Shown: positions 24,269 through 48,981, numbered from the whole stretch's first letter. The stretch: DNA of 61,629 nucleotides, filler included, from 5 parts of 5 records of this genome joined end to end with filler, not necessarily neighbours in it; one strand, 5' to 3'. Made by a program: numbers and translations. The notes: a model not told the origin generated them from the letters alone.

Positions 24269-24286
24269 TTTTTCTTCCTCTACCCC

Positions 24287-25214: not shown

Positions 25215-25235
25215 ACCTCACCACCTATGCATATT

Positions 25236-26082: not shown

Positions 26083-27411
26083 TCACGTCAGCACTGTGGC
26101 AACATGTTCCTTGAAGCCAATATTAACTCCAACCAACTCATCCAATATTGGATTATAAATTTCTGGAATTACGGGTATATGGGTTCCAGTCATTTTGATT
26201 TGACCATTTAAAATCATCTTAACGGAAACGGCTGCAGGATAGGCTACTGTACGGGCAATAGAAGTGTCCTCACCAACAACACCATAATCCAACATTGTCG
26301 AAGTAATAGTTTCTTGTTTTTCGGAAAAATGGGCGACCACCTCATGGTGCATCACGACCATATCTTGATCTCCCGGGCCAATTGTCAATTTACGCATGGT
26401 TATATCATTGAGAAAATCCAGGGGGGTTGTACTCTTTTCTGAAAGCTTGGCCTCGCTGAACAAACCTAGCCACTCAAGTCTTTTAATGACCGTGGAATAT
26501 CTTTCCAACCGGAGAAAGTCGGCTACTGTATCAATAATAGTCGAATCAGGTTTGGCATTAACGAGGTGAGCACTCACATCTCGATACGTGCGGCCGGAAA
26601 AATTCTCCAATGGCTCATCTAACAGCCAGCCAAGTTCAACAATTTTTTTGAAGGTCTCACACCACCCCACCATTCTAAAGGTTCCGCGGTAAATAGTTGT
26701 AGACTTATCAAGACCATAAATACTCTGATAGGGTATAGAGTCCCGATTAGGATAGTTTTCAAATGTCCCAATTTCGGGCACATCCTGGAAATAATAATGT
26801 TCGAATAATTGCTCACCCGGCACAGAAACAATCTCTCCGCCTTCTAACCATTTTGAGGCATTTCGTGATGCAAGCAATACACCGCGTGGTGACCATGAAA
26901 ATTTATATCCAAAGGGATTGGTATTAGATGCATGGGCGGGAAGTGCTCCGGTAGTTGATTTGAAGCTGGTTACAGTTCCACCTCTCTCTTCTATATTGTG
27001 GATCATTCGCATGGCCGACATATGATCAATGCCAGGATCGAGACCAATTTCATTTAACAAAATCACTCCAGCTTCTTTAGCCTCTTTATCTAACGCCCTC
27101 ATCTCATTGCTGACATAGGAGGTTGTAACCAGATGCTTGTGATGCTTAACACATAATTTCGCCACGCTCACGTGGTGGATATAGGGAAGCAAACTGACAA
27201 CCAAATCAGAGGCAGATACCAATGTTTCCAGCTGAGCAGCATCTGCAACATCAAGAGATTTTGCTGTGCCATTTTCAGCTCCGTTTATAATTATATCAGC
27301 TTTGCTTACTGTCCGACTGGCAAGCGTAACAAAACAACATGGTTGATTAAGCAAATACCGAACTAACGGTTTCGACACCATACCTGCGCCGAGCACGAGC
27401 ACTTTATTCAT
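26083..27411 (-). CDS. Saccharopine dehydrogenase (L-glutamate-forming; AASS SDH domain / Lys9-like)
   Basis: LGAGMVS, SLLPY..H, TTSYVS, EIGLDPGIDH, YKFSWSPRGVL, YPNRDS, RGTFR, IARTV. Confidence 0.92.
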   Translation of the reverse strand: MNKVLVLGAGMVSKPLVRYLLNQPCCFVTLASRTVSKADIIINGAENGTAKSLDVADAAQLETLVSASDLVVSLLPYIHHVSVAKLCVKHHKHLVTTSYVSNEMRALDKEAKEAGVILLNEIGLDPGIDHMSAMRMIHNIEERGGTVTSFKSTTGALPAHASNTNPFGYKFSWSPRGVLLASRNASKWLEGGEIVSVPGEQLFEHYYFQDVPEIGTFENYPNRDSIPYQSIYGLDKSTTIYRGTFRMVGWCETFKKIVELGWLLDEPLENFSGRTYRDVSAHLVNAKPDSTIIDTVADFLRLERYSTVIKRLEWLGLFSEAKLSEKSTTPLDFLNDITMRKLTIGPGDQDMVVMHHEVVAHFSEKQETITSTMLDYGVVGEDTSIARTVAYPAAVSVKMILNGQIKMTGTHIPVIPEIYNPILDELVGVNIGFKEHVATVLT

Positions 27412-27464: not shown

Positions 27465-28763
27465 CTATAAATAGTCTTCAATATATCTAAAATCAGGGGT
27501 TAATTTTCCTTGATGAAGAATCAGTGCACCTTTAATTTCCTGTGACAGATTCAACTGTTCATATCCTACAGAAAAATCTGCTCGAGCTATCTGCGGGACA
27601 AATGGGACGAGGGTCTCACTAAAGTCAATAGACGATTCCCGAGGTAGTTCACAGGGCAGATTATCCACCGCCATTACAACAACGCCATCCTTGTGTAAAT
27701 CATCGTGTATAGCATCCTCGACCGGATCATAGATATACGAAGGATTATCTGGGCTGGTTGATTTTTCTGTAAATTCGATTGCCCCGTTTATGTCTACACT
27801 GATATCTCCAATCACCTGCAACCTGGTGCCATCTTCACAAGCTTTTTTAATTTGTTGCTTGGTGATAAGCCGTGGATAAGATTCATTCCAGTAAATACAG
27901 TTAACGAGAATACTCAAATGGGAAAGGTATTGATTAAAACAGGAACGATAATTTTGCGGTGAGCTGTAGTAATCCTGCAACGAAAAAGGTTTTTCAGCAT
28001 CAGCATGAACAACCATATCTCTCTCTTTAAACACAACCTTATAAATGGTGTACGGGGAGTAGTTATCAGTCAATGAATCAAGGTCACAAGGTGAAATTTC
28101 TGTTACCGGCAAAAGATCCAATATTTCCTGAGCCCCTTTGGATACATTGCCATACCCTGCGAAGCCAACCACAAAAGGAGCTAACGAGTCCGGCAACCCT
28201 TTTTCCTTGATATGCTGGCCAACATTTTCCAGATGCTGTTGGGCCTGATTTAAATCTTTATACTGTACAGTTGTTTTAATGTCATTCAGAGGCGATTCAA
28301 CATATTGTAACTTTAGTTTTTCTCCAAAAGACCAAAGTGTATCAATCATTCCTGCTAGCCCGGCGTAACGCCCAAAAAACACTAGTCTTTTACCATCATT
28401 ATTTATAATTTTTTCGTAATCAATAAGATTACATTCCAAAGACATCATTTTTTTCAACATGTCCATATTGTAAGGTTGGCCTTTTATAACATGAGAAAAA
28501 AACACATAAGTTTTTTTAACCCTGAAGCACTGAGACGGAATTTCTTTAACAGCAAAAGTAACAGAACAGTCATCAATATCTTCACATATAGTTGCCCCTG
28601 ACTTCTGAAACTCATAATCCAAAAATGACCTTACCTTTGAAGGTTGAACCACAACTTCAATGTTTTCAACTTCCGTCAGTGTTGCTATATCACTTGGAAC
28701 GACAGGAACACGTCTTTCCCATTTATTTTTATCTTCTCTTCGTATTGCAATTTTAGTTGTCAT
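27465..28763 (-). CDS. Lysine-ketoglutarate reductase (AASS LKR domain)
   Basis: IRREDKNKWERRVP, VQPS..R, VKEIP, FFSHVIKGQPYNM, LIDYEK, FGRYAGLAG, GNVSKGAQE, DNLPCELPRESS. Confidence 0.9.
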   Translation of the reverse strand: MTTKIAIRREDKNKWERRVPVVPSDIATLTEVENIEVVVQPSKVRSFLDYEFQKSGATICEDIDDCSVTFAVKEIPSQCFRVKKTYVFFSHVIKGQPYNMDMLKKMMSLECNLIDYEKIINNDGKRLVFFGRYAGLAGMIDTLWSFGEKLKLQYVESPLNDIKTTVQYKDLNQAQQHLENVGQHIKEKGLPDSLAPFVVGFAGYGNVSKGAQEILDLLPVTEISPCDLDSLTDNYSPYTIYKVVFKERDMVVHADAEKPFSLQDYYSSPQNYRSCFNQYLSHLSILVNCIYWNESYPRLITKQQIKKACEDGTRLQVIGDISVDINGAIEFTEKSTSPDNPSYIYDPVEDAIHDDLHKDGVVVMAVDNLPCELPRESSIDFSETLVPFVPQIARADFSVGYEQLNLSQEIKGALILHQGKLTPDFRYIEDYL

Positions 28764-30828: not shown

Positions 30829-31116
30829 CTAACTTACTTGACCGTAAGTTTCATACTCCTCTTGTTGTTTTTTTCGTCTCTTCCAAACCCACGTCATTCC
30901 TTTGTCAGTAGTGACGAAGCGCTCATCATGATTAACTAAAAAACCATAAATAATAGCGATTTTGTATAGCTCCTCTACAGTTGCCTCTGCCTCTTTTTCA
31001 ACATTAGCGAGAAAGGACTTCCCTATTATTTCCTGCCCCTTATGCCATATGAGAATGAGGGCCAACCATGAATTTTCCCTTTCGCTCATTTCATGACAAA
31101 AAGCTTGAGTTGGCAT
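30829..31116 (-). CDS. Hypothetical protein
   Basis: 95-aa ORF on the same strand as its neighbours; no recognisable motif. Confidence 0.35.
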   Translation of the reverse strand: MPTQAFCHEMSERENSWLALILIWHKGQEIIGKSFLANVEKEAEATVEELYKIAIIYGFLVNHDERFVTTDKGMTWVWKRRKKQQEEYETYGQVS

Positions 31117-31175
31117 ATTATATATGGGCTGAGGAGACGATTATTATTCTCTAGTAATAAAGGTTCATCAATGCC

Positions 31176-32471: not shown

Positions 32472-32493
32472 TTGAATGTACAGTAGGTAGCAC

Positions 32494-32728
32494 TAACCCG
32501 AATTTCTCATGACCTTTTTGATTTCAAACTCAACTAGTTGATATTATTGTCTAAAAAATAACTGCACAATTAACAGTCTGTTTTTCGTTTTAAATCAAAA
32601 AGTTCCCCCTTCGGGTCAATAAATTTTTCCGCAGGATCTGCGTTACAAACCACTTGCGGTAGTTTCCTACAGCTACGCGGCTTGTGCCTTGCCCTGCGAA
32701 AACCTTTATTGATGAAAAATCCGGGCTA
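32494..32728. mobile_element. MITE-like element between oadA and oadB
   Basis: Imperfect terminal IR TAACCCGAATTTCTCAT ... ATGAAAAATCCGGGCTA (14/17); internal hairpin TCAATAAA..CGCAGG ... CCTGCG..TTTATTGA. Confidence 0.55.
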
Positions 32729-32739
32729 AATATTAATTA

Positions 32740-34536
32740 TTAACCAATAGTCACAAGCATATCACCGGCCTGGACAGTCTCTCCGGACCGGACATGGACC
32801 TCCAGCACCTTACCCGCTTCTGGAGCAGTGACCTCGGACTCCATCTTCATAGCCTCTAGTACCACCAGCGACTGATTGGCCTTAACCGGCTGATCTACTT
32901 CCACCAACACCTTGACCACATTACCGGGGGTGGGGGCCTCAATCACCTCTCCGACCGGGACTGGAGACGTCGTTTCCTGGGGAGCCGATGGAGCAGGCGT
33001 CGCCTCGATACCACCGCCGTCTGAAACTGTCACATCATAGGAGCGGTTGTTAACCACGATGGAATAACTTCTGGGCCCTGCAGGACGGACACCTGCAGGA
33101 GCAGGAACGGGCTGCCTCTCATCAACCTGGGACTCTTCATCGGTTACCTTGCGGATATTAACCTTCGCATTACCCAGGAGGTAGTCGAGTCCCTTTTGTT
33201 CGCAGCTGGCAATAATAAAGACATTTTCGTCAGTGACAGGTAAATTGTTTTCCTGCAGAACCTTGCTCGCTTTGGGGATACCTGCCTCCAGAATATCCAG
33301 GGGGTTATCGGTGAAAACCGGTTTACCCAGCTGTTCTGTGGCAAGTTTAACGATCTCGGGGTTAGGCGGCGCCGGGGTTCGACCAAAGTAGCCAAGAACC
33401 ATGTTGCCATAACTGGGGTTGATCTTCTTCCACTTGCCCTGGGTCACGTTCAGGTATGCCTGTTGGAAATAAAACTGGGACACAGGAGTTACCGAGGCCC
33501 CAAATCCGCCCTTAGCCACCACCTCGGACATCTCCTTAATCACCTGAGGATAGAGGTCCAAGGTTCCGGTATCACGCATCATCATGGTGTTGGCGGTCAA
33601 GGCCCCACCAGGCATAGGCGACAAGGTTACCTTGGGGGAGATCATCTTGGCTTCCGGTGGAAAAAAGTACTCCTTCATCGCCTCTTCAAACACTTCCGAG
33701 GCCTTAAGCACCTTGACGTAGTCCAAATCCAAGGTAAAGTCAGTTCCTTTGAGGGCGTGCATCATAGACAGAATATCAGGCTGGCAGGTTCCACCGCTCA
33801 CCGGCGCCTTTGCCAGGTCAATCCCGTCCGCTCCCCCCATAACCGCAGCCATATTTTGGGCAATCCCCTGGTCAGCGGTATCGTGGGTGTGGAACCAGAG
33901 GATTGTATCTTCAGGTACAATTTTTCGTGCTGCCTTAAAGGTTTCGTACACCTTCCTGGGATTGGCAGTGCCCGAGGCATCCTTGAAGCAAATGGAATGG
34001 AATGGGATCTCCGACTCCAGGATTTGCTTTAACCGTGCCATATAAAACTCAGGGGTATGGGCGGCACCAGTGCAACCCGGCGGTAGATCCATGATCGAGA
34101 TCACGATCTGGTGTTTCAGCCCATGGTGGACGATCCGCTCACCCGAGTATTCCAGGTTGCGAGTATCATTGAGGGCATCGAAGTTGCGGATGGTTGTCAT
34201 GCCGTGTTTCTTGAACATCTTGGCATGGAGATCGATAATATCGCGTGGGCACTGGCTGAGGGCCACTACACTGATACCGCGGGCCAAAGTTTGAAGCTCG
34301 GCTTCCTTGCCCACCTCCAACCGAAAGCGATCCATCATGTCAAAAGCTGATTCACCGCAATAGAAAAACAGACTCTGAAACCGGGCACCACCACCTGCCT
34401 CTATGTGGGTTATACCTGCATCCACGGTCGCCTTGACTGCAGGCAGAAAATCATTGGTCAGCACCCTGGCTCCGAATACGGACTGGAAACCATCACGGAA
34501 GGAGGTGTCCATGAACTTGATTACTTTTTTACTCAC
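32740..34536 (-). CDS. oadA: Oxaloacetate decarboxylase alpha subunit (carboxyltransferase + biotin carrier)
   Basis: DTSFRDGFQS, FKDASG, HTH, MPGG, VTPVSQ; Pro/Ala linker; EAMKM biotinylation site. Confidence 0.92.
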   Translation of the reverse strand: MSKKVIKFMDTSFRDGFQSVFGARVLTNDFLPAVKATVDAGITHIEAGGGARFQSLFFYCGESAFDMMDRFRLEVGKEAELQTLARGISVVALSQCPRDIIDLHAKMFKKHGMTTIRNFDALNDTRNLEYSGERIVHHGLKHQIVISIMDLPPGCTGAAHTPEFYMARLKQILESEIPFHSICFKDASGTANPRKVYETFKAARKIVPEDTILWFHTHDTADQGIAQNMAAVMGGADGIDLAKAPVSGGTCQPDILSMMHALKGTDFTLDLDYVKVLKASEVFEEAMKEYFFPPEAKMISPKVTLSPMPGGALTANTMMMRDTGTLDLYPQVIKEMSEVVAKGGFGASVTPVSQFYFQQAYLNVTQGKWKKINPSYGNMVLGYFGRTPAPPNPEIVKLATEQLGKPVFTDNPLDILEAGIPKASKVLQENNLPVTDENVFIIASCEQKGLDYLLGNAKVNIRKVTDEESQVDERQPVPAPAGVRPAGPRSYSIVVNNRSYDVTVSDGGGIEATPAPSAPQETTSPVPVGEVIEAPTPGNVVKVLVEVDQPVKANQSLVVLEAMKMESEVTAPEAGKVLEVHVRSGETVQAGDMLVTIG

Positions 34537-35152: not shown

Positions 35153-35413
35153 CTACCCCCTCTTTCTTATTTCTTTTCCCCTGTCGAGTGCGGCCAACCC
35201 CGATAAGGTTATTAAAGAATAATCCCCTTCTGCAGAGCTTTGAATTTCGCCTGTATAGTCCATGCTAAGTAGAAGTTCCCTAGCCTCCTTGAGGCTTAAT
35301 CGTAACTCTTTTGCAATCCTTTCGATGTTCACCACTTGAGGGTGACGGTTGTGAAGATTTTCATAGAGAAGGCCAAGAACACGATTCCTGTTTTCTTTTT
35401 GGGTTTTCATCAC
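35153..35413 (-). CDS. Small putative winged-helix protein
   Basis: VNIERIAKELRLSLKEARELL...GEI...SLITLSG pattern. Confidence 0.5.
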   Translation of the reverse strand: MMKTQKENRNRVLGLLYENLHNRHPQVVNIERIAKELRLSLKEARELLLSMDYTGEIQSSAEGDYSLITLSGLAALDRGKEIRKRG

Positions 35414-35445: not shown

Positions 35446-38400
35446 TTACACTGCACTCGTAATGATTGAACCCAGTGCAGCATCGGGATTCTTCTCAAAT
35501 TTTGTCAAGAAAGAGTTCCATTTTTCCCCAAACTGGTAATAAGCCATTGACGCGAGCTTCTTTGTAAGAATTGCATCGCCATACACCTCTAATTCTGGAC
35601 TCAGTAGAGTCTCTATGATGTAATCTATTCCCATTTTTTCAACGAGTACTGCGGGGACATATTCAGCAAACACTTTCTTCACCAACTCTTTGTCTGTTCT
35701 CAAATCTGGAATGATACCAACGAGTCGATCCTGCAAATCAAAGATACATTCACTGGACTTTTCAGAAAGGGTAAAGAGAGGGTACTCCTGGTTTGCCTCA
35801 TGGAGCTTTATGAGCATCAGGGCTTCTTGCTTTGCGTATCTTTCTACGAGCAGAATAATATCTTTTATGAGACCCCAAAGCGTCTTCGTATCTTTCATGA
35901 GCCTATCTTCATACTCATCACCAAACAAAAATGCCGTGAGCACTTCCGCAATTGAACTGCTGAAAACACCGCCTTTATTAGCACTGGAATCCTTGATTTG
36001 CTTAATGGACGTGTTGGTAGCTATATACCTCCTGGCACTGTCATCAAAAAACACATTTGCTCCCTCAGCAATATATTGCAACTCTTTGAAATTGGAGAGG
36101 AACTGATCAATATTAGTCTGATTAAGGGTGTCTTTAAACCCGCCACAGGGAATGAAAGCTCCAATATTGGCCGCTTGGAGATAATTTCTAGAGTTGGGAC
36201 TAGTTAGAAAGGTTCTGTGGAAAACCATCCCATCTTCAACAATAGTTCCATCAGGTAGAGGAATATTTTTTGCTGTAAGTGGTACCATAAAGCCATTGGG
36301 GCCAAGTTTTGCTTTTGGATAGCTGAGACTATTTTGACGAGGCACCGTATTCCGGGAGAACGAGAGTTTCACCAACTCCTTTTTGTCCAGCCCAGCAGGA
36401 TCATAGAGTACAGACCCGCCATCAATAATCAGACAAATCTTTCCTTTGTACGACTGAATCTGATTTGCTCCCAGATCTCCATCAGGCCCTCCGCTGATCA
36501 TCAAATTCAAGCTTTCCTCTTTTGTGCCGTAATATTCGAGCATGGCTCTGAATGCTGACATAACTGAGGAAGTCGTCATGCCGCTTACGGAAATTTTCCC
36601 ACCGATATTGGTATAAATTTCCTCCATGTCATTTGTAACGACGATAGACTCACCATTTATCTGTAACTCAACCCCTTGAGCACCTTGATCAAAGAGGCCA
36701 AAACAATCGCCTGTATCGAGCAACCCATAGGTGTCATGGGGAATCCCAAAACTTTTTCCAGTTGTCAAGGTACGCCAATATTTACACCCTCTATCTTTTG
36801 CTCTTAAGGCAATGGCATCCATCAGTTGAGCAGTACCTTCGTCCGGTCCAAAGAATATCATTTCAGACTTTTCGTAGTAGTCGACGATACCTTGATCTTG
36901 CAGAAGGATCAGATCCATGATGCCTTCAGTGTAATCACACAACGCCTCTTTACTTGCTCTTGCATACTCGACATGAGGAACAACAACTCCCTTAGAACCG
37001 CTTTCACAAATATCCTTATGTTTGATACGTTGCGCCTCTGGTCCAAGCGCATAGTTAAGCAGTACGACTTCGTCAAGCTTGCTCGCATAATTTGACCGAT
37101 TAATACGGAGCAATCGAAGGCCACCTCTAGCTATATCCCCTGCTCGCATATGTGTGCCACAGGCATAATGCCCATTGACAAAGAAAATTCCGTACACTGA
37201 CTGATTAAACACAAGAGGATCGAGAATCTGATTGGTAAACCGGAAAGAAAACGCTCTTTTTTCTGCAAAGAAAAAATTGGTCTTGAGTGTGCAAGTAATG
37301 ATCTTGAACATAAAACGGAAGATATCGTAACCAAGGGGATAATCTATAAAACGGCCATAGATCTTCTTCTCGAAATCCACCCATGCCTTTTCAAGCTGCT
37401 CCTGTGTAAGGCGGCTCTTTATGGTCGGGTCAAATTTTTTTTCAAAAAGAGCATAGAGGTCAACGACCAGATCGGCGTTACTATGGACGGCTTGCTCAAT
37501 GAGGGTAGCAGTATAGGTGGACTTATTGGATTCTTGAATGCGCTTGGCAAATGATTGCTGAAAGTCTTTGTTATCTAGGTGTTGTAATATACCTTTATCA
37601 GAAGCATTTCTACTCTCTTTAAAAATAAAGAGATGAGTAAAGTCGACGAGGTTTCCCCCAAAAAGCATTTCTTTGAAGGTCCAAGCACTTTCTAGATACA
37701 GCCCTGAAACAGAGCTTTGCGCAAAGGATAGGAAATCCCGAAGATCACCGGTGAGAATCTCTTCATCTTTTCTTGTAAGTTCTGCATTGATGTACAAGGA
37801 ACAGACCGAAGATGAAACATCCAAATCTGCAAGGTAGGGTTCCCAATACGCCCTGACTAACGTGTAGCCCCTGTCTGCTAAGATTTTCCTCAATATTGAA
37901 AGTTTTGGCACTTCAAAATCAGAATTAAACACAAACCGGGTTTCACCCGTTTCCGGAAGATTGAAAGCTTGAATAAAAGGTACAGCCGAGTTATCAGATT
38001 TTTTTAAAAAATTTTCGTACCTTGCTCTCGTTGTTTCAGGTGTAATGCAGTAGTCTCCGGCAAGACTATAGAGAAAACGGGACGTTTTAAAATCATCGTT
38101 CGCAAAATCCTTTACGGTTTCAGCACGAAAGATATAGGTGTGGTAGTTATTTTCAGGACTAAAATAGTACTCTCGTCTATGACCAGCCAGCGTCTCGTCG
38201 AGAAGCGCTTCCATGGAATCACGGGTTTCATCCGTTGCAATCCGCACTCGCTGCCCTTCAGCACTATTGCTCAAATCAAAATCGATGTGGGCCACCTTGC
38301 CGAAAAGAGCCGCCTTACCATCTATAACCTTGATACTTGAGGCGATTGATTGCAGAAGCTGGGCCAGGGCGTGTTTCTTTATATAGGTAAAAAAATATCT

Positions 38401-38613
38401 GGGAAGCCCTAAGTCGGTCAGGAGAATCCCCGCCGCAATATTAATACAATTGGCTGTAAGTAGACCTTCTGCTGAAAGGTCGATGACAGCTTCGTACAAA
38501 ATCCGTTGATCAAGACCTGCCTCCTCTGCTTTTTTGATGATATCAGCACCGCGTGTTGGCGCAGTGAAATTTATCGGGAGTGTTTCCTGGGAAATATCTT
38601 GAAGTGTGGCCAT
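35446..38613 (-). CDS. Large NAD-specific glutamate dehydrogenase (GDH2-type)
   Basis: KTNFF, DIARGGLR, KHKDICESGSKG, FFGPDEGTA, TTGKS, GGPDGDLG, EGANVF, KDSSANKGGVFSS. Confidence 0.9.
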   Translation of the reverse strand: MATLQDISQETLPINFTAPTRGADIIKKAEEAGLDQRILYEAVIDLSAEGLLTANCINIAAGILLTDLGLPRYFFTYIKKHALAQLLQSIASSIKVIDGKAALFGKVAHIDFDLSNSAEGQRVRIATDETRDSMEALLDETLAGHRREYYFSPENNYHTYIFRAETVKDFANDDFKTSRFLYSLAGDYCITPETTRARYENFLKKSDNSAVPFIQAFNLPETGETRFVFNSDFEVPKLSILRKILADRGYTLVRAYWEPYLADLDVSSSVCSLYINAELTRKDEEILTGDLRDFLSFAQSSVSGLYLESAWTFKEMLFGGNLVDFTHLFIFKESRNASDKGILQHLDNKDFQQSFAKRIQESNKSTYTATLIEQAVHSNADLVVDLYALFEKKFDPTIKSRLTQEQLEKAWVDFEKKIYGRFIDYPLGYDIFRFMFKIITCTLKTNFFFAEKRAFSFRFTNQILDPLVFNQSVYGIFFVNGHYACGTHMRAGDIARGGLRLLRINRSNYASKLDEVVLLNYALGPEAQRIKHKDICESGSKGVVVPHVEYARASKEALCDYTEGIMDLILLQDQGIVDYYEKSEMIFFGPDEGTAQLMDAIALRAKDRGCKYWRTLTTGKSFGIPHDTYGLLDTGDCFGLFDQGAQGVELQINGESIVVTNDMEEIYTNIGGKISVSGMTTSSVMSAFRAMLEYYGTKEESLNLMISGGPDGDLGANQIQSYKGKICLIIDGGSVLYDPAGLDKKELVKLSFSRNTVPRQNSLSYPKAKLGPNGFMVPLTAKNIPLPDGTIVEDGMVFHRTFLTSPNSRNYLQAANIGAFIPCGGFKDTLNQTNIDQFLSNFKELQYIAEGANVFFDDSARRYIATNTSIKQIKDSSANKGGVFSSSIAEVLTAFLFGDEYEDRLMKDTKTLWGLIKDIILLVERYAKQEALMLIKLHEANQEYPLFTLSEKSSECIFDLQDRLVGIIPDLRTDKELVKKVFAEYVPAVLVEKMGIDYIIETLLSPELEVYGDAILTKKLASMAYYQFGEKWNSFLTKFEKNPDAALGSIITSAV

Positions 38614-38719
38614 TATTGTTCCGTTCCTATGAGACGGAGTCGATATTCTTTGTCTGGAAAAATAAGCCGAACGGACATCAGTCACGTCCGGCGATATGGA
38701 TCAAGTCTTCAGTGGTTAG

Positions 38720-39919
38720 TTATACCCGCTCTATAACAATGGCAAGACCTTGACCGACACCAATACACATGGTGCAGAGAGCTCTCTTTTTCTTTGACCG
38801 AACCAGTTGACGCATGGCGGTAAGAATGAGCCTCACACCACTCATTCCTAATGGGTGACCTAAGGCTATAGCTCCTCCCAGAGGGTTTATCCGAGGATCT
38901 CTATCGGACAATCCCAACTCTCTGCAACAGGCTAAGGCCTGGGAAGCGAAGGCCTCATTGAGCTCTATGATGTCCATGTCATCGATCTTCAGATTGAGCC
39001 GCTGTAAAATCTTCCTTGTTGCCGGCACAGGCCCCATTCCCATTATCCGTGGCGGTACACCTGCAGCTGCCATTCCCAACACCTTGGCTTGGGGGGTCAA
39101 CCTGTGTTTTACGGCTACATCTTCTGTTGCCAGCAGCATGGCTGCAGCGGCATCATTGACTCCTGAAGAGTTGGCAGCGGTGACAGACCCACCTGAAAAA
39201 AGAGGTCGCAAGAGGGCCAATTTTTCCAACGGGGTTAATCGCAAGTGCTCATCCTTTTCCACTAAAATCGGATCACCCTTACGCTGGGGCACAGATACAC
39301 CTGCTATCTCTTCGGCCAGCTTACCGTTCCGCTGGGCATCTGCGGCTTTTTCCTGACTCCAATACGCAAAGCTGTCCTGATCTTCACGACTGATTTTATA
39401 GTCTACCGCGACATTCTCTGCGGTCTGGGGCATTGAATCAGTCCCATACATTTCATGCATTTTTTCATTTATAAGCCGCCACCCGATCGTTGAATCCGCA
39501 ATCTCTGGCTTACGGGAAAATGCGTCCCCTGTTTTGGGAATTACCCAAGGGGAGCGAGACATATTTTCCACACCACCGGCAATAATAAAATCGCATTCAC
39601 CAGCTTTGATTGACTGAGCCCCTGCACCCACTGCGTTCATCCCCGACGCGCAAAGACGATTGATAGTGGTACCTGAAATCTCTACAGGTAACCCTGCAAG
39701 CAGAGAGGCCATTCGAGCCACATTTCGGTTATCTTCACCCGCCTGGTTAGCACAACCAAATACAACGTCATCAACTTCATCCCACCCTACCTGCGGATTT
39801 CTCTTCATCAAGGCCTTCAGGGGCTCGGCAGCAAGGTCATCTGCTCGCACGGAAGAGAGCCCACCGCCAAATCGCCCTACTGGAGTCCGAATTGCATCAC
39901 AGATAAAAACTTCTTTCAT
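38720..39919 (-). CDS. pcaF: 3-oxoadipyl-CoA thiolase (PcaF/PaaJ subfamily)
   Basis: RADDLAA, GCANQAGEDNRNVARM, NRLCASG, NEAFASQ, GHPLGMSG, CIGVGQG. Confidence 0.85.
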   Translation of the reverse strand: MKEVFICDAIRTPVGRFGGGLSSVRADDLAAEPLKALMKRNPQVGWDEVDDVVFGCANQAGEDNRNVARMASLLAGLPVEISGTTINRLCASGMNAVGAGAQSIKAGECDFIIAGGVENMSRSPWVIPKTGDAFSRKPEIADSTIGWRLINEKMHEMYGTDSMPQTAENVAVDYKISREDQDSFAYWSQEKAADAQRNGKLAEEIAGVSVPQRKGDPILVEKDEHLRLTPLEKLALLRPLFSGGSVTAANSSGVNDAAAAMLLATEDVAVKHRLTPQAKVLGMAAAGVPPRIMGMGPVPATRKILQRLNLKIDDMDIIELNEAFASQALACCRELGLSDRDPRINPLGGAIALGHPLGMSGVRLILTAMRQLVRSKKKRALCTMCIGVGQGLAIVIERV

Positions 39920-40005
39920 GGATTTTCTCCAAAGTATAATTCATGCCTAAATGCACAATGCTTCCTGTTGCGTTCTTTTAATCGCCCCAAAAAGCAACTT
40001 TACAT

Positions 40006-41343
40006 TTACATATTTCCTCGCACCTTACGCAACCCACCCAGCATGGCTTCTGCCAGTACACCAATCTCCTTTTCCGTCATCGGCGTGGAAAGGGTGAAAG
40101 AGCAGGTATTTATCATCATGATCCCATGATCAAACAGGTGATCCAGAAGTATCCCAAGAAGTTTTTTCTCCTCGGGACCAATATACGCTTGCCTATAGGT
40201 ATTAGGAACTTGAGGTTTTAAATGAACACGAAACATGGACCCACTACCGCTCACACATGCAGGTACACCAGCTATTTTTATTGCATCAGTAACTAACTGC
40301 CGCGCTTTCTCGGTCAGCCTATTAAGCCTCTCCACTGCCTCGCGATCAAAAAGTTCCAAACTTACCAGTCCAGCTACCATTGTTATTGGGTTAGCCGAAA
40401 AAGTACCTGAATGGGGGAAAAGCACTTTATCCTGCAAAGGATTCATCACGTTCATAACCTCTTTCTGGCCAGCGATCGCACCAACCGGAAACCCTCCACC
40501 TATCATCTTGCCCATGGCAGTGAGATCAGGGGTTACATCGTAGAGTTCTTGGGCTCCGCCATACTGGAACCGAAAAGTGATTACCTCATCGAAGACCAGG
40601 AGGGCTGAATTATCAAAGGTCCACTTGCGCAGAGCACGGACAAACTCCTTACTGGCAGAGGTCAGGCCAACACGATGAGATACGAGGTCTATCAAGACAC
40701 AAGCTAACTCGTCCTTATGTTTATCGAGGATAGCGATAGCTTTTTCAATATCATTGTATGGGATAACAATTACATCGTTGAGGGCTGCAGCAGGTGTTCC
40801 ATAAGCTACAGGTACAGAGTTTGGTGAATCCTGCTCACCCCAGTTCGTGGGATTGGAAGTTTGGCTTACTTCAGCGTAGTCATACAAGCCATGATAGGCA
40901 CCCTCTACCTTGGCAATCTTAGCCTTTCCCGTGTACGCCCTGGAAGCCTTCAGGCAACTCATCACAGCTTCTGTTCCGGAATTAACGAAGCGTATCATCT
41001 CAAAAGAAGGGCTCCGATTAACCAAGTGCTCAGCGAAAGCGAATTCCTGCTCTGTAGCGGTAGTGAATGCTGTACCTTTCTGTAGTTGCTTGGTAGTCGC
41101 CTCCACCACGTCTGGGTGAGCGTGTCCATGAATTAAAGAGGCCATGTTGTTTGCAAAATCAATTCGCTTGACCCCTTCTATGTCAGTGACATAGCATCCC
41201 TTCCCATGATCTGCATAAATGGGATGAGGTTTGCGCAAAACTGTATTGCGGCTCACCCCCCCTGGCATGATTTCGATAGCTTTTTTATAAAGTTCTGCGC
41301 TACGGGAAAGAGTTACAGTACCTTCCACTTTTTCTGCTTTCAT
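40006..41343 (-). CDS. Class III PLP aminotransferase, GSA-aminomutase-like (beta-amino acid transaminase-like)
   Basis: NSGTEA, EGAYHG, FDEVIT, MGKMIGGGFPVGA, SGTFSANP; has PGGVSRN where HemL has PGGVNSPVR. Confidence 0.85.
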   Translation of the reverse strand: MKAEKVEGTVTLSRSAELYKKAIEIMPGGVSRNTVLRKPHPIYADHGKGCYVTDIEGVKRIDFANNMASLIHGHAHPDVVEATTKQLQKGTAFTTATEQEFAFAEHLVNRSPSFEMIRFVNSGTEAVMSCLKASRAYTGKAKIAKVEGAYHGLYDYAEVSQTSNPTNWGEQDSPNSVPVAYGTPAAALNDVIVIPYNDIEKAIAILDKHKDELACVLIDLVSHRVGLTSASKEFVRALRKWTFDNSALLVFDEVITFRFQYGGAQELYDVTPDLTAMGKMIGGGFPVGAIAGQKEVMNVMNPLQDKVLFPHSGTFSANPITMVAGLVSLELFDREAVERLNRLTEKARQLVTDAIKIAGVPACVSGSGSMFRVHLKPQVPNTYRQAYIGPEEKKLLGILLDHLFDHGIMMINTCSFTLSTPMTEKEIGVLAEAMLGGLRKVRGNM

Positions 41344-41458
41344 TGTCTTTTCCTAGAAATCGTTGTTATCACTTGATGGTTACAATACCCGCCGTGCTCA
41401 ATCCTTAAAAAGGCGGTTTTGCGGCGGGTAAAGAGTACTCAGCTTTATTATCAATGAA

Positions 41459-43051
41459 TCAACCCAACCGAGCTTTGAGTTGAGCCTCCAGTTGCTCCTC
41501 GATTTCCTCGAGTTCATCTTCGAAAAAGAACTTGTCTGTATCATAAGGTTTTACCAAGTCAATTTTATTCGTCGTTTCATCATGCTTGGCCAAAAACACA
41601 CGATCCATCCATTCCATATTTCGTGATTCTGTAAACTGCAGTGCAAAACATGTATCACCATTGACACGGGTAGTACCTAAGATAGCCAATTTTCCCGCGG
41701 AAATAGTCATGGAGATGTGTCGGGAAGGGCGATTCAATGAGGCAAGGGAATGGTATATTTTACTGAATACCTGCTCGATCTCAGCCAAAGGCGCGGCAAA
41801 GTAATGGTGTTCTCCGGTGGGACGTGCACAGTACATTGAATGAAAACCTACCCCTAACATGGCAATAATATTTGCCAGATCAATCCAGTTATTAGCTGAC
41901 CGATCCACATCCACCTTGCCATCTTCACCTTTAAACAGACTGATATGATTCATTATAGGGCTTTGACTGCGAACCATTACACCATGGGCTTTCAGTCGAC
42001 GTATAGCGGCTACAGTTGAAGGATTCACTATCTCCCTCGGAGTTGAGAAGTGAGCCATCCAAGCGACTTGGATACCGTTGTCATACAGATGTTTGAATAA
42101 AGACAATGTCTCCTCATATTCAGGCTGGAGAATCATTGCCGGGTTAAATGTCAACGCTCTGGATCCAATGCGCAGAGTACGAACATGACTCAACTCAGGA
42201 TCTTCTATGATTGGTTGCATATACGCTTTGAGCCTTGATGCTGGTAAAAATCCACCATCACCCCCTGTGACCAGCATGTCAGTAACCTCTTTATGCAACC
42301 TGAGGTAACTGTGAATTTGATTCACATCATTTTGCAAAAACATATCTTCATCTCCGCGCACTTGGGCGTGCCGGAAGCAGTATGTGCAAAAAGAGAAACA
42401 ATTCTGAGTTGTCTTGTCAAAAATCAACATGCATTGCGGATACTTATGCTGGCTTCCTTCAAGAAAATCGATATCGCCATCACACTCAAACCAGGGCTTG
42501 TTAAGCTGCTGCTTACCATCATGAGGATTTGTTTTTTCCATATAGGCTTCAACGATCTGGGCTCTTTGCTCATCACTTGTTGCCTCTACATAAGCCTTAG
42601 TTGCCTCCGGTTCCATCATCCCTGGCTGGGGAACTACTAACTGGAAGATGGAGTCAGTTTCATAGTTATCCCAATTAATTGAATTCAAGCTGTGCCGAGT
42701 AGCCATAAAGCGATAGACTTCTATGTAAAACTCACGCTCTTTAACATGGCTTAACTCAATTCCACTGTCCGCCAGGATTTCACAAAACTCACGAAATCCT
42801 TTTAATCCAACATAGCTGCCCTGATCAGTGAAGAGGAAACTGTTTTTCTCACTAAAAGAGGAATATTTCTCATATTCACGATGTAGTCTATTCGCGACCC
42901 CTAGGGGTAAAAGGTTCTCCTTTTTAATGATAGCCACCACATCATCAGAGTACCCGTATCGTGTCATTACCTCTGACAGGTCAACATGGTCTTTTGCTGC
43001 TGTGCCTGAGCTTTGAGCCGCTTCGTTATTCGCTACGTTCACATAAGCCAT
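41459..43051 (-). CDS. KamA-family radical SAM/PLP 2,3-aminomutase
   Basis: HKYP, CFSFCTYCFR (CxxxCxxC), TGGD, RIGSR, HF.TPRE, SQSPIM, and SAGK as likely PLP lysine; GAGGAG RBS. Confidence 0.85.
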   Translation of the reverse strand: MAYVNVANNEAAQSSGTAAKDHVDLSEVMTRYGYSDDVVAIIKKENLLPLGVANRLHREYEKYSSFSEKNSFLFTDQGSYVGLKGFREFCEILADSGIELSHVKEREFYIEVYRFMATRHSLNSINWDNYETDSIFQLVVPQPGMMEPEATKAYVEATSDEQRAQIVEAYMEKTNPHDGKQQLNKPWFECDGDIDFLEGSQHKYPQCMLIFDKTTQNCFSFCTYCFRHAQVRGDEDMFLQNDVNQIHSYLRLHKEVTDMLVTGGDGGFLPASRLKAYMQPIIEDPELSHVRTLRIGSRALTFNPAMILQPEYEETLSLFKHLYDNGIQVAWMAHFSTPREIVNPSTVAAIRRLKAHGVMVRSQSPIMNHISLFKGEDGKVDVDRSANNWIDLANIIAMLGVGFHSMYCARPTGEHHYFAAPLAEIEQVFSKIYHSLASLNRPSRHISMTISAGKLAILGTTRVNGDTCFALQFTESRNMEWMDRVFLAKHDETTNKIDLVKPYDTDKFFFEDELEEIEEQLEAQLKARLG

Positions 43052-43150
43052 TTCTTGCTCCTCTTTGCATTCTATGTTTTTTCTACTCGCTGAGCAGACG
43101 GCGCTGATCGTCCTCGCTCAACAAATGTTTATTGTTTTTTCGAGCGGACG

Positions 43151-43543
43151 TTATTTTGTTCCTACCTGTAAGATTGTTGCTGATGCCTTGGCCACAAGTT
43201 TGCCTGTATCATCCTCAATAACCCCTTCTACATAGCCGGTCTGCCTGGAACTATTGATGACCTGACCAATTGCGGTCAAGCTTCCCCACTTAACCGCTTT
43301 TATAAAATTCACCTTCATCTCCAAGGTTACACCATTACGTTTTTCTTCTGGTAAACCCAATATGTATGATCTGGCCATTACAGTATCAAGCAACGCCGCC
43401 AACACTCCACCATGAACAAACCCCATCATATTGTGATGGCGTGGTTCTATGTCTAAATGAGCTAAAAACCGATCATCGCGAAAACCAACGAGCGCTGCCC
43501 CTATCGTTTCAATAAAATTTATTTTTTGTTTATTCTCTGCCAT
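43151..43543 (-). CDS. PaaI-family hot-dog thioesterase
   Basis: HNMMGFVHGGVLAALLD, VTLEMKVNFIK, GKLVAKASAT; ATG 43543 after AGAGGA. Confidence 0.88.
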   Translation of the reverse strand: MAENKQKINFIETIGAALVGFRDDRFLAHLDIEPRHHNMMGFVHGGVLAALLDTVMARSYILGLPEEKRNGVTLEMKVNFIKAVKWGSLTAIGQVINSSRQTGYVEGVIEDDTGKLVAKASATILQVGTK

Positions 43544-43578
43544 CTTGCTTTCCTCTATGCAGTAGAACTCGACTCGAT

Positions 43579-43653
43579 TGTTCCGCAATGCGGTTCAACA
43601 TGTTCCGCAAATTTTTACAATTCTCTTCTACCTTAACGCTGGTTTGATGTCAA
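43579..43653 (-). promoter_or_regulatory. Sigma70-like promoter with a downstream IclR-type operator for the paaI-kamA operon
   Basis: Minus strand TTGACA (43653-43648), 17-bp spacer, TAGAAG (43630-43625); TGTTCCGCAA repeated at 43579 and 43601; palindromic core CCGCAATGCGG. Confidence 0.5.
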
Positions 43654-44690: not shown

Positions 44691-45842
44691 TCACCTTTCA
44701 GCTATTTTAGACACGGCTTCTATGGCTGCGTTTATATGGTTTTCATCATTGAAATAACCAGGGCTGAAGCGAATCGTTCCGATATTGGAAACCGATATGT
44801 CTTCGGCGACAAGCGGCGCGCAGTGCAAACCCGTTCTTACAGCGATCCCGAAATCGCCGTCCAGCACCGCCCCGACATCCGCGGCCGCTTTTCCTTTAAT
44901 ATTGCAAATTACAATGGGGACGCTGTTCAGTCCCGGACATGGAGTGTATAGAATTACGTTTTCTATATCCTTCAGTCCCAAATAGAGCTTTCGCGCCAGG
45001 GCGGACTCCCTTTGCCGGATATTATCCTGGCCGGCTTCTGAAATGAAATCCAGGCCCAGGGAAAGCCCGATAATTCCGGGGAGATTAAGAGTTCCTGCTT
45101 CCAAGCGATGAGGAAAGCTTTGAGTGTGTATTAATGAGGCCGAATCAACCCCTGTCCCGCCAAAACGGGTGGATTTTATGTCCAGTTCAGAAGACAGGGC
45201 CAGGCCGCCTATACCGGCCGGCCCCATCAAGGCCTTATGCCCGGTAAAAGCAACAGCTGCAATGTTCCACGCTGCCATGTCTATAGGCGTTTGACCGGCG
45301 CTCTGGGCTGCGTCTATCAGAAGAGGCAGGCCGTGTTTGGCGCATAAACGGCCGATTTCGGCAATTGGTTGAATTGTTCCCAGTACATTGGACGCATGAT
45401 TGACTATTACAAGTTTGGTTTTCGGTTTAACGGTTTGTTCAATTTCCGATAGGTCCACAAAGCCGTCAGGGCATGAAACCAGGCTGTAATCGATCAGGCC
45501 TATTTTCTTAAGGTGGAAAAGGGGGCGCAGGACTGAATTGTGCTCAAGGCGGGTGGAAATAACATGATCGCCCTGCTTTACCAGGCCTTGTATGGCCAGG
45601 TTCAGCGAATCGGTGGCATTGAATGTGAAAACAATACGATTCGGATCCGGGGCGTTTAGAAAATTGCTCAGTTTCAACCGGGTTTCTTCAACGAAATAGT
45701 GGGCTTCCATGGCCAGGTCGTAACCGCCCCGGCCCGGGGAGCAGCCCAGTTCGGCATACAGTTCGGTCATGCGATTTAATAACGAACGGGGCTTTGGGAA
45801 AGACGTCGCGGCGTTGTCGAGGTAAATAAAAGGATTTTCCAT
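44691..45842 (-). CDS. Cysteine desulfurase-like class V aminotransferase
   Basis: YLDNAATSFPKP, NATDSLN, EHNSV, DAAQ, TGHK (PLP Lys), EAGT, RTGLHCAP (persulfide Cys). Confidence 0.9.
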   Translation of the reverse strand: MENPFIYLDNAATSFPKPRSLLNRMTELYAELGCSPGRGGYDLAMEAHYFVEETRLKLSNFLNAPDPNRIVFTFNATDSLNLAIQGLVKQGDHVISTRLEHNSVLRPLFHLKKIGLIDYSLVSCPDGFVDLSEIEQTVKPKTKLVIVNHASNVLGTIQPIAEIGRLCAKHGLPLLIDAAQSAGQTPIDMAAWNIAAVAFTGHKALMGPAGIGGLALSSELDIKSTRFGGTGVDSASLIHTQSFPHRLEAGTLNLPGIIGLSLGLDFISEAGQDNIRQRESALARKLYLGLKDIENVILYTPCPGLNSVPIVICNIKGKAAADVGAVLDGDFGIAVRTGLHCAPLVAEDISVSNIGTIRFSPGYFNDENHINAAIEAVSKIAER

Positions 45843-45856
45843 GGCCGCGCCCCTTC

Positions 45857-46204
45857 TTACATGCAGGATTTTGGATTGGGAAGTCCGGCCAGTCGCCGAG
45901 CCCCGTTTTTTATGCCGCCGGGAAACAGGTTTTCTATTTGCTGGAGGCTCAGGCCCGCACCGTTTTTCAATTGCCGGTTCAAGGGCGCCCGTCCGTTTTG
46001 GTAATAATATTCCCTTAAAAACATCAGCACTCGCATGTGTTGTTCGGTCAGGTTATCAAGCCCGTTTTCCCGGGCCAGCAAACGGGCCGCCGCCTCGGTC
46101 CAGTCATCGGGATCGTTAAAGAAGCCTTCCGCGTCAAAGACAATGCGGCGGCCGTCTATCTCGCGAACCTGAACCCCGGCGGCGTTATTTTGGCCGGCAT
46201 TCAA
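45857..46204 (-). CDS. TusE/DsrC-family sulfur relay protein
   Basis: DAEGF..PDDW, LTEQH, LFPGG, RLAGLPNPKSCM with a single penultimate Cys. Confidence 0.88.
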   Translation of the reverse strand: MNAGQNNAAGVQVREIDGRRIVFDAEGFFNDPDDWTEAAARLLARENGLDNLTEQHMRVLMFLREYYYQNGRAPLNRQLKNGAGLSLQQIENLFPGGIKNGARRLAGLPNPKSCM

Positions 46205-46210
46205 AGAATG

Positions 46211-48868: not shown

Positions 48869-48981
48869 ATTCACACTCCAAAAATTATTGCATATAAAAA
48901 TTACCGGGTTGTATTATGCCAAAAAAGATATAAAATAAACACCCAATAAATCAAAAAAGATATAATAAAAGGCGGAAAATT

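Follow-up and report, generated by a model that had tools for sequence, protein, structure and literature searches.

A widespread cassette encoding a KamA-like radical SAM protein, a HemL-like aminotransferase and a PcaF-type thiolase, with a proposed role in 2-aminoadipate degradation

Introduction

Lysine 2,3-aminomutase (LAM) of Clostridium subterminale, KamA (PDB 2A5H), is a 416-residue enzyme whose genetic partners are kamDE, kdd and kce. LAM-type enzymes have a zinc site, and the roles of individual LAM residues have reportedly been assigned; they include Asp293, which reportedly binds the ε-ammonium group of lysine. Glutamate 2,3-aminomutase is likewise a KamA-family enzyme; its substrate is an acidic amino acid, and at the position of LAM Asp293 it reportedly has a basic residue. 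Known catabolism of 2-aminoadipate runs through 2-oxoadipate and glutaryl-CoA to crotonyl-CoA. The lower branch of the β-ketoadipate pathway (PcaIJ and PcaF), which is fed from aromatic ring cleavage, ends in succinyl-CoA and acetyl-CoA. In a variant lysine fermentation, β-lysine is converted via kamDE, kdd and kce to acetoacetyl-CoA with the participation of a 3-aminobutyryl-CoA aminotransferase, Kat, which acts on CoA esters only (Perret et al. 2011, PMC3149608).

Here we compare these systems with a locus in a 61,629-nucleotide stretch of DNA, filler included, joined from 5 parts of 5 records of one genome (the window). An earlier note on this DNA had read the locus as a new catabolic route for an α-amino acid, most coherently 2-aminoadipate, and this interpretation is supported by the sequence comparisons described below.

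Results and Discussion

The cassette and its conservation

ORF calling identifies five minus-strand ORFs of 145, 530, 445, 399 and 1079 aa, separated in gene order by 99, 115, 86 and 34 bp, which bears out the co-oriented, closely spaced arrangement originally described. The second, third and fourth of these, encoding the KamA-like protein (41459..43051), a class III aminotransferase (40006..41343) and a thiolase (38720..39919), are all intact and full length and have the same order in relatives from many phyla. The arrangement is therefore not a chance one, and the three genes are the central part of a widespread and undescribed cassette whose conservation is strong. In the relatives a CoA-transferase pair (CtA and CtB) lies between the first two core genes, and the order aminomutase, CtA, CtB, aminotransferase, thiolase is kept throughout the loci examined; CtA directly follows the aminomutase, which stays with transferase, aminotransferase and thiolase, in 108 of the 110 loci with at least 1 kb of downstream sequence. 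The CoA transferase that had been expected outside the window is thus found inside the relatives' cassettes. Only in the window and in one other locus (L068) does the aminotransferase come directly after the aminomutase. At the site of the pair the window holds a 115-bp spacer with an imperfect hairpin (41344..41458, minus strand), and tblastn with CtA and CtB (E 1e-3) gives no match anywhere in the window. The absence of classical partners noted previously also stands: none of kamDE, kdd, kce, kal, ablB or epmA occurs among the annotated neighbours of the window aminomutase, and kamDE, kdd, kce and kal are missing from the conserved neighbours in 78 cassette loci. The partners of this aminomutase type are PcaIJ and PcaF homologs instead of the kamDE, kdd and kce of KamA.

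The KamA-like aminomutase

The 530-aa product of 41459..43051 is probably a PLP-dependent, KamA-like radical SAM 2,3-aminomutase of a distinct subfamily. It has no Pfam family match and falls under every NCBIfam KamA-family cut-off, scoring 68.5 bits against TIGR00238 (KamA family; cut-off 199.2), 60.8 against the lysine 2,3-aminomutase equivalog TIGR03820 (525.4) and 55.4 against the glutamate 2,3-aminomutase model TIGR04368 (650), and it lies far from every characterised subfamily. The family assignment made in the earlier note holds at the level of fold and motifs, as that of a distant member. The best PDB match to an AF2 model of the protein (pLDDT 79.4, pTM 0.82) is 2A5H (Foldseek E 1.7e-11, TM 0.57-0.60 on target), with 16-18% identity in the structural alignment, and the modelled fold is LAM-like. 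The CxxxCxxC [4Fe-4S] motif (C218/C222/C225) aligns to the LAM cluster motif, the SAM-binding GGD/E motif of the KamA family is present as G263-G264-D265, and R227 aligns with LAM R134. These residues, together with R410 and K454, are invariant in an alignment of 27 family members, and none of the family-invariant residues is missing from the window protein.

Besides the greater length of the window protein, its N- and C-terminal regions differ from those of KamA. The only invariant cysteines of the family are the three cluster ligands, which makes a LAM-type zinc site unlikely. K454 lies in an S-A-G-K motif and is kept by at least 90% of the uncharacterised KamA-like proteins that make up a wider clade; because the alignments to 2A5H extend no further than residue 324, this candidate PLP lysine is equated with LAM K337 by motif alone. 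LAM D293 is aligned with R410 (posterior about 0.9), and an Arg at this position would fit a distal carboxylate on the substrate. The same Arg is also common to the wider clade and thus does not point to 2-aminoadipate in particular. Members of the family, from Desulfobacterota, Gammaproteobacteria, Bacteroidota, Acidobacteriota and other groups, are closely similar (53-83% identity). Among 187 Desulfocapsaceae genomes just 2 have the aminomutase, a rarity that suggests recent acquisition. We propose that the protein is a 2-aminoadipate 2,3-aminomutase.

Aminotransferase, thiolase and CoA transferase

The 445-aa class III aminotransferase (40006..41343, minus strand; PF00202, 202 bits) is GSA-aminomutase-like. 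Identity with HemL itself was considered and rejected, as the protein scores 335.5 bits against hemL TIGR00713 (cut-off 527.3); it is also below the cut-off of NF000818 (338.3 against 398). Its best PDB relatives are 6K8H (397 bits), ForI (340), HemL (about 240) and the β-transaminase 2YKU (188), with 4AO9 also matched, and 6K8H ranks above all HemL entries. 6K8H is described as a β/γ-amino acid ω-transaminase of Sphaerobacter thermophilus (PMC10589169). The closest characterised relatives suggest that the protein belongs among the GSA-aminomutase-like β-amino acid transaminases, the class to which it had been likened at the outset, and orthologs in the cassettes share 53-74% identity. Its proposed function is that of a 3-aminoadipate (or 3-aminoadipyl-CoA):2-oxoglutarate β-transaminase.

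The 399-aa thiolase (38720..39919, minus strand) is of the 3-oxoadipyl-CoA (PcaF/PaaJ) type, as first annotated, and passes both the pcaF equivalog TIGR02430 (642 bits, cut-off 597) and NF006551 (666, cut-off 605). Among cassette thiolases 41 of 43 match pcaF at E <= 1e-179, which would imply a C6 dicarboxylyl-CoA substrate. The CoA-transferase pair of the relatives belongs to the two-subunit PcaI/PcaJ-ScoA/ScoB family, which is lacking in the window, and passes TIGR02429 (338-350 bits, cut-off 128.5) and TIGR02428 (about 299, cut-off 243.55). Transferase and thiolase resemble the β-ketoadipate lower branch at the level of family models, and the predicted products are the same; the difference lies in the supply, which in the cassette would come from an amino acid via aminomutase and transaminase.

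Neighbours bearing on the substrate

Genes for L-piperideine-6-carboxylate (P6C) dehydrogenase, the enzyme that forms 2-aminoadipate, occur within 18 of 134 cassette loci, in five different arrangements; among other placements, they lie directly upstream on the same strand in two loci (L003 and L065), directly after the thiolase in Draconibacterium, and ahead of a lysine 6-transaminase (LAT) and the aminomutase in L017, the one locus where both enzymes adjoin the cassette. The adjoining dehydrogenase scores 800 bits against NF050084 (cut-off 730) and the LAT 674.6 against TIGR03251 (cut-off 520.8). The expected association with LKR/SDH is partly seen, in that saccharopine-dehydrogenase-family genes flank the cassette in 12 of 134 loci, directly after the thiolase in L010; most loci, however, have no P6C dehydrogenase, LAT or SDH neighbour. 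Where present, these adjacencies point to a lysine-derived C6 substrate, 2-aminoadipate, and so lend sequence-based backing to the substrate originally preferred. Genome-wide co-occurrence of cassette and P6C dehydrogenase is weak: among 301 Bacteroidales genomes, many of which are incomplete MAGs, the dehydrogenase is found in 9 of 23 with the aminomutase and 75 of 278 without. It exceeds the cut-off in 7 of 15 genomes of cultured strains with the cassette, and in none of the 6 from Shewanella and 2 from Photobacterium. In one genome each of Shewanella and Photobacterium (G001 and G003), searches for LKR, SDH and LAT homologs also gave no match. In the window, tblastn finds no match to P6C dehydrogenase.

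Proposed pathway

The best-supported reading, which we hold to be moderately probable, is that the cassette degrades L-2-aminoadipate via 3-aminoadipate and 3-oxoadipate(-CoA) to succinyl-CoA and acetyl-CoA. Lysine breakdown through saccharopine or piperideine-6-carboxylate would supply 2-aminoadipate, whose amino group the radical SAM/PLP enzyme would shift from C2 to C3; the HemL-like transaminase would then hand the amino group of 3-aminoadipate to 2-oxoglutarate, yielding 3-oxoadipate. A PcaIJ-type transferase would form 3-oxoadipyl-CoA at the expense of succinyl-CoA, and the PcaF thiolase would cleave it to succinyl-CoA and acetyl-CoA, regenerating the CoA donor. Transamination and activation may be swapped, the CoA ester being transaminated as in the Kat enzyme. 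For the organism of the window the CoA transferase would have to come from elsewhere in the genome; since the window itself holds neither this enzyme nor P6C dehydrogenase, the pathway is not complete within it.

The Kat system and the proposed route would share a HemL-like class III β-transaminase with 2-oxoglutarate as acceptor, an adjoining thiolase, a GDH recycling the acceptor, and the logic of converting a β-amino to a β-keto compound followed by thiolysis. They differ in the proposed substrate, here 3-aminoadipate, and in that the nearest solved relative of the cassette transaminase takes free β/γ-amino acids. With the known 2-aminoadipate route the proposal shares the entry metabolite and the enzymes leading to it, namely P6C dehydrogenase preceded by LKR/SDH or LAT, but it would keep the C6 skeleton and cleave it into C4 and C2, dispensing with glutaryl-CoA dehydrogenase. 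If true, the route bypasses the oxidative decarboxylation of 2-oxoadipate and would suit anaerobes and facultative anaerobes. No paper describing a passage from 2-aminoadipate to 3-oxoadipate was found in the literature library searched.

Alternative explanations

Other substrates would use the same enzymes differently. Were it L-glutamate, the cassette would lead through β-glutamate, 3-oxoglutarate and 3-oxoglutaryl-CoA to malonyl-CoA and acetyl-CoA, which would amount to a new way of fermenting glutamate; an Arg aligned with LAM D293 suits any acidic side chain, a GDH-like gene adjoins in the window, many cassette genomes have no dehydrogenase forming 2-aminoadipate, and a GadC-like glutamate/GABA-family antiporter (661.8, cut-off 673.5) stands right after the thiolase in one Shewanella locus. 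We nonetheless consider this improbable, given the very low score against the glutamate 2,3-aminomutase model, the pcaF-level thiolases, which point to a C6 and not a C5 dicarboxylate, the recurrent P6C dehydrogenase, LAT and saccharopine dehydrogenase neighbours, which have no role in such a route, and the lack of any conserved malonyl-CoA-handling gene in the loci. Slightly less credible still is lysine itself, the classic substrate of the KamA family, which would give β-lysine and, after removal of the ε-amino group by LAT or saccharopine enzymes and an aldehyde dehydrogenase, 3-aminoadipate for the same downstream steps. It would explain the LAT, P6C dehydrogenase and SDH neighbours equally well, but these are missing from most loci and the dehydrogenase and LAT pass equivalog cut-offs for their canonical substrates, while the aminomutase is far below the lysine equivalog and has its invariant Arg where LAM has the Asp that reportedly binds the ε-ammonium. 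Another amino acid (Leu, Phe, Arg or 2-aminopimelate), offering the thiolase a different 3-oxoacyl-CoA, has the slimmest prospects: the remoteness of the aminomutase from characterised subfamilies, the distantly PaaI-like thioesterase and a BCCT transporter ahead of the aminomutase cassettes of Motiliproteus at two loci (L016 and L072) would allow it, yet the thiolases and the neighbours suggestive of a lysine-derived C6 compound speak against it, and aromatic or branched-chain catabolic genes are not conserved around the cassette loci. The Phe and Leu options raised earlier have accordingly gained nothing, and the findings that would have weighed against 2-aminoadipate (a gene set not conserved, a true HemL, a lysine-specific aminomutase) are not those obtained.

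A different possibility, rather unlikely in our judgement, concerns the window more than the cassette: having lost its CoA transferase, the module may be non-functional, or the GDH, decarboxylase and LKR/SDH genes may be unrelated bystanders. The direct junction of aminomutase and aminotransferase, the probable recent acquisition, the absence of GDH, OadA and OadB homologs from all 134 cassette loci and the changing surroundings of the GDH in relatives favour it. Against it are the intact core ORFs with all family-invariant aminomutase residues, a thiolase-GDH gap of 34 bp that fits co-transcription, and the genome of L068, which has a 3-oxoacid CoA-transferase homolog elsewhere and so makes supply in trans plausible.

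Genes accompanying the cassette in the window

The 145-aa protein (43151..43588, minus strand) is a hotdog-fold thioesterase (PF03061 52.7; TIGR00369 80.8, cut-off 36.6), as claimed, but its assignment to PaaI does not hold (TIGR02286 29.6, cut-off 118.9); it is an occasional cassette accessory, since 9 of the 134 other loci have a homolog next to the cassette. The 1079-aa protein (35446..38685, minus strand) combines an ELFV catalytic domain (PF00208 68.9) and Bac_GDH_CD (PF05088 36.1), both over their cut-offs, as predicted for a large bacterial NAD-glutamate dehydrogenase, and has neither an NCBIfam match nor a PDB sequence match at 1e-5. The protein is glutamate-dehydrogenase-like, and its presumed membership of the gene set does not extend beyond the window. 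Its homologs in Desulforhopalus, Desulfopila and further genera (65-74% identity) carry the name glutamate dehydrogenase. The enzyme could regenerate 2-oxoglutarate for the transaminase, and a role as recycler is possible. Downstream lies an 86-aa ORF (35153..35413, minus strand) with no Pfam or NCBIfam match; the GDH loci of nine relatives have no synteny with the window except for this ORF, a homolog of which follows the GDH in two of them. About 7 kb beyond the GDH, on the same strand as the five ORFs, are an AlaDH_PNT-family gene (27465..28763; PF05222, PF01262), a candidate lysine-ketoglutarate reductase (saccharopine dehydrogenase, lysine-forming), and a saccharopine dehydrogenase family gene (26083..27411; PF16653 257, PF03435 85), which could feed lysine into the route. 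Homologs of the former, with 35% identity, occur in Draconibacterium and Marinifilum genomes.

Gene content of the locus

The locus consists of five minus-strand ORFs separated by spacers of 99, 115, 86 and 34 bp, as the earlier note had proposed. The first (43588..43151) encodes a 4HBT hotdog thioesterase that exceeds the cut-off of TIGR00369 (80.8 vs 36.6) but not that of the PaaI equivalog (29.6 vs 118.9), so that its assignment as a thioesterase holds while the PaaI label does not. The second (43051..41459) encodes a KamA-like protein of 530 aa with no Pfam match, which in the family scan matches every KamA-family model, each weakly, the best NCBIfam model being TIGR00238 (68.5 vs 199.2). 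The nearest models of the third product, a class III aminotransferase (41343..40006), are those of HemL, but its score lies below them (TIGR00713, 335.5 vs 527.3), in keeping with the proposal that it is not a true HemL. The fourth gene (39919..38720) passes the pcaF equivalog TIGR02430 (642 vs 597) and is the PcaF-type thiolase expected, while the fifth (38685..35446) encodes, by family scan, an ELFV/Bac_GDH_CD dehydrogenase of 1079 aa, referred to as GDH. The same contig carries the lysine-ketoglutarate reductase (LKR)-like gene of the AlaDH_PNT family (27465-28763) and the saccharopine dehydrogenase (SDH) gene (26083-27411) previously noted. As also anticipated, tblastn within the window finds neither a CoA transferase nor a piperideine-6-carboxylate (P6C) dehydrogenase. 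Family scans covered ORFs outside 13401-25787, and neither of two window ORFs compared with the PDB is a CoA-activating enzyme. Promoter and terminator scans returned no more sites than shuffled controls and are thus uninformative on operon limits.

A conserved cassette containing a CoA transferase

Gene order around the aminomutase was established by tblastn with the window proteins and by all-against-all clustering of the ORFs flanking the aminomutase. Both approaches give a single order: aminomutase, a ~240-aa gene, a ~220-aa gene, aminotransferase and thiolase. The two small genes are subunits A and B (CtA and CtB) of a 3-oxoacid CoA transferase (PF01144, 223 and 145 bits), and in the relatives they pass TIGR02429 (338-350 vs 128.5) and TIGR02428 (~299 vs 243.55). 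With the locus set widened by 57 metagenome loci, CtA is the next gene in 108 of the 110 loci where the sequence extends 1 kb or more past the aminomutase, counts that include duplicates (at least locus L085 repeats L005). Thus the CoA transferase described as missing belongs to the conserved cassette, and the suggested association of the KamA homolog with aminotransferase, pcaF thiolase and CoA transferase is confirmed. The two exceptions are L017, where nothing related lies downstream of the aminomutase, and L068, where the aminotransferase directly follows the aminomutase as in the window and the genes further downstream are unrelated (CorA and others). The metagenome scan revealed no contig arranged like the window and lacking the CoA transferase. 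By comparison with its relatives, the window has lost or relocated the CoA transferase, no remnant of which is found in the 115-bp spacer after the aminomutase by tblastn or in the spacer sequence. At this position, which the CoA transferase occupies in relatives, an imperfect hairpin ACCCGCCG ... CGGCGGGT at 41380-41430 (minus strand) may be either an attenuator or the scar of a deletion. One Motiliproteus MAG chromosome (L018 and L072) holds two full cassette copies, at ~4.26 Mb and ~1.62 Mb, with a P6C dehydrogenase near just one of them.

The other neighbours are less constant. No GDH homolog adjoins the cassette in any of the 134 loci. The window GDH is of the large type usual in Desulfocapsaceae; it has homologs 65-74% identical in Desulforhopalus, Desulfopila and other genera and no sequence match in the PDB, and the GDH loci of nine Desulfocapsaceae relatives share no synteny with the window except for an 86-aa ORF in two. 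The proposed recycling of the amino acceptor by GDH therefore retains the 34-bp spacing to the thiolase as its sole link to the pathway, against the lack of a homolog at the other loci and the unshared surroundings. A hotdog thioesterase lies beside the cassette in 9/134 loci from several lineages and is thus accessory at most. A Na+-translocating decarboxylase set at 30829-34536 (minus strand) comprises an OadB-type beta subunit (TIGR01109, 539), a divergent carboxyltransferase+BCCP subunit (oadA, 306 vs 756), which in the PDB is closest to transcarboxylase 5S and PycB, and a 95-aa ORF. It was rejected as a replacement for the CoA transferase, since it is linked to none of the 134 cassette loci and decarboxylation would bypass the thiolase.

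The aminomutase family and its active site

The family search covered a collection of 5.8 billion proteins, of which the best 120 matches measure 505-557 aa, are 62-83% identical to the window protein and, where named, are called 'hypothetical protein', 'lysine 2,3-aminomutase' or 'radical SAM protein'. Clustering at 50% reduces the family to essentially one representative. The full-length relatives next outside it are 41% and then 27-38% identical, none of ten outlying relatives scanned reaches any NCBIfam KamA cut-off, and the metagenome scan found no relative above 76% identity. The window's aminomutase passes none of the curated subfamily tests, and its family is tight and without a name of its own. 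Carriers among 77 genome loci include Desulfuromonadales, Desulfobulbia and Desulfocapsaceae; Shewanella, Photobacterium and Motiliproteus; Draconibacterium, Marinifilum and other Bacteroidales; Balneolales; and Acidobacteriota, Sumerlaeota, Gemmatimonadota, Planctomycetota and others. Within Desulfocapsaceae the aminomutase is present in only 2/187 genomes, which makes acquisition of the module by the window's lineage probable.

The predicted AF2 model of the aminomutase (pLDDT 79.4) has a sole strongly significant match, to the lysine 2,3-aminomutase KamA (LAM; PDB 2A5H, E 1.7e-11). Residues C218/C222/C225, R227, G263-G264-D265, R410 and K454 do not vary across 27 diverse family members, and R227 aligns with LAM R134. 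A profile of the family and its distant relatives places LAM D293 against the arginine of an 'RDTG' motif, R410 in the window protein (posterior ~0.9), a match also obtained by two-step pairwise mapping; sequence and profile alignments to 2A5H end by residue 324, short of LAM D330 and K337. LAM D293 reportedly binds the epsilon-ammonium of lysine, as Lepore et al. are said to have found in 2005, and Ruzicka and Frey are said to have noted in 2007 a basic residue at this position in glutamate 2,3-aminomutase. The invariant arginine thus argues for a substrate with an acidic side chain rather than lysine. Arginine at the D293 position is also the consensus in a large KamA-like clade (proteins P0124-P0260, 400-610 aa, 22-41% identical to the family), a body of unexplored aminomutase diversity whose members may take other acidic substrates. 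The best solved relatives of the transaminase are 6K8H (397 bits), a Sphaerobacter thermophilus beta/gamma-amino acid transaminase according to PMC10589169, and ForI (340 bits), with all HemL structures lower (~240).

Neighbouring genes point to 2-aminoadipate

An aldehyde dehydrogenase of 513 aa that recurs beside the cassette passes the equivalog NF050084 (800.4 vs 730) of P6C dehydrogenase, the enzyme that forms 2-aminoadipate. Its homologs (at least 50% identity) occur in 18/134 cassette loci in five arrangements: immediately upstream on the same strand (L003, L065); 3-5 kb upstream (L005, L007); in a row with lysine 6-transaminase (LAT) and aminomutase (L017), where LAT passes its equivalog (674.6 vs 520.8); past the thiolase and a LysR gene (L018); and, in three metagenome contigs and eight species of Draconibacterium, immediately past the thiolase. 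The Draconibacterium-type loci have saccharopine-dehydrogenase-family genes on both flanks, and in a Desulfocapsa MAG (L010) an SDH homolog immediately follows the thiolase. With the cassette beside saccharopine enzymes in some loci and LAT in another, two upstream routes would converge on it. Among 43 cassette thiolases, 41 match pcaF with E <= 1e-179, a value near its cut-off, and this fits a 3-oxoadipyl-CoA intermediate. In the Desulfobulbia MAG carrying L017, P6C dehydrogenase, LAT and aminomutase are consecutive at 6980-11536 without a CoA transferase; no CtA homolog was found in that genome, whose closest aminotransferase is 37% identical, which points either to an incomplete MAG or to a different fate of 3-aminoadipate there.

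The expected company of the KamA homolog with LKR and SDH is seen for SDH-family genes in the Draconibacterium-type loci and L010, but no LKR, SDH or LAT homolog turned up in the two genomes searched for them, one from Shewanella and one from Photobacterium. A dehydrogenase scoring above the cut-off is present in 7/15 cultured cassette-bearing genomes (one Draconibacterium, four Marinifilum, two Motiliproteus) and in none of the six Shewanella and two Photobacterium, which would have to import the substrate or make it by another way. Across 301 sampled Bacteroidales genomes, many of them small MAGs, lists compared by hand place the aminomutase in 23, the dehydrogenase in 84 and both in nine (9/23 with aminomutase vs 75/278 without), a weak genome-wide association.

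Proposed route and alternatives

The best-supported reading, which we hold to be reasonably probable, is the 2-aminoadipate route put forward in the earlier note, to which the neighbouring genes and pcaF-level thiolases point; each of its four steps is inferred. The radical SAM/PLP aminomutase would turn L-2-aminoadipate into 3-aminoadipate, transamination with 2-oxoglutarate would give 3-oxoadipate, succinyl-CoA would activate the latter, and thiolysis of 3-oxoadipyl-CoA would yield succinyl-CoA and acetyl-CoA. Thiolysis would regenerate the CoA donor, making the cassette self-contained. The order of the genes and the example of Kat would also allow CoA transfer before transamination. Kat is a HemL-like transaminase that, according to PMC3149608, acts solely on 3-aminobutyryl-CoA and works alongside a thiolase and GDH.

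Since the arginine is common to the wider clade of KamA-like proteins, it does not single out 2-aminoadipate. A GadC-like antiporter following the thiolase in one Shewanella locus keeps glutamate, processed via beta-glutamate, alive as a rival, an improbable one in our estimation. Lysine as the first substrate, via beta-lysine, would conflict with the invariant arginine aligned with LAM D293 and appears less probable again, with some other amino acid the least likely. A question separate from the substrate is whether the window's copy is incomplete or reliant on a transferase encoded elsewhere, which we regard as rather unlikely.

Each part of the cassette is of a kind already known, the aminomutase being KamA-like, the transaminase a beta-transaminase and the remainder PcaIJ/PcaF. 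The characterised radical SAM 2,3-aminomutases form a small set acting on lysine, glutamate and arginine. We lean narrowly towards the view that this unnamed, widespread radical SAM subfamily is a 2-aminoadipate 2,3-aminomutase founding a new, decarboxylation-free catabolism of lysine and 2-aminoadipate, which bacteria of some ten phyla, anaerobic or facultative, would use, with 3-aminoadipate as a new natural metabolite. Literature searches, with subscription journals and supplements mostly outside their scope, found neither the inferred substrate, the 3-aminoadipate intermediate nor the overall route, and terms related to 3-aminoadipate returned analytical or unrelated work only; the available part of PMC8706239 does not describe the route. 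If correct, the proposal would add a substrate class to these aminomutases and a new natural beta-amino acid, and would provide a third disposal route for 2-aminoadipate, tying lysine catabolism to the 3-oxoadipate pathway with no oxidative decarboxylation. It would also give a function to more than 1000 proteins labelled 'hypothetical' or mislabelled 'lysine 2,3-aminomutase', and account for the end of lysine breakdown in marine anaerobes and facultative anaerobes. The enzymes are also of relevance to bio-based adipate and beta-amino acid chemistry, one being a beta-transaminase and the other, on this proposal, an aminomutase that takes a C6 diacid. Shewanella, Photobacterium, Draconibacterium and Marinifilum are cultured, tractable carriers, so the hypothesis is directly testable.

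Other features of the window

Positions 1-10000 have a G+C content of 29-31%, vs 40-57% in the remaining window, and may be a foreign island. The 544-aa product of the gene at 11660-13294 (minus strand) is a flavoprotein that scores ~305-317 bits against PDB entries and resembles p-cresol methylhydroxylase and vanillyl-alcohol oxidase. At 44691-48874 (minus strand) a cysteine desulfurase/selenocysteine-lyase-like gene (TIGR01977, 414.6 vs 377) adjoins a gene like fused 2Fe-2S and molybdopterin aldehyde oxidoreductase or Se-dependent XDH, and the two could be a selenium-dependent molybdoenzyme pair. At 58536-61508 (minus strand) a PALP-family PLP enzyme lies beside a protein of 610 aa that weakly matches a radical SAM domain, so that the window pairs radical SAM with PLP a second time.
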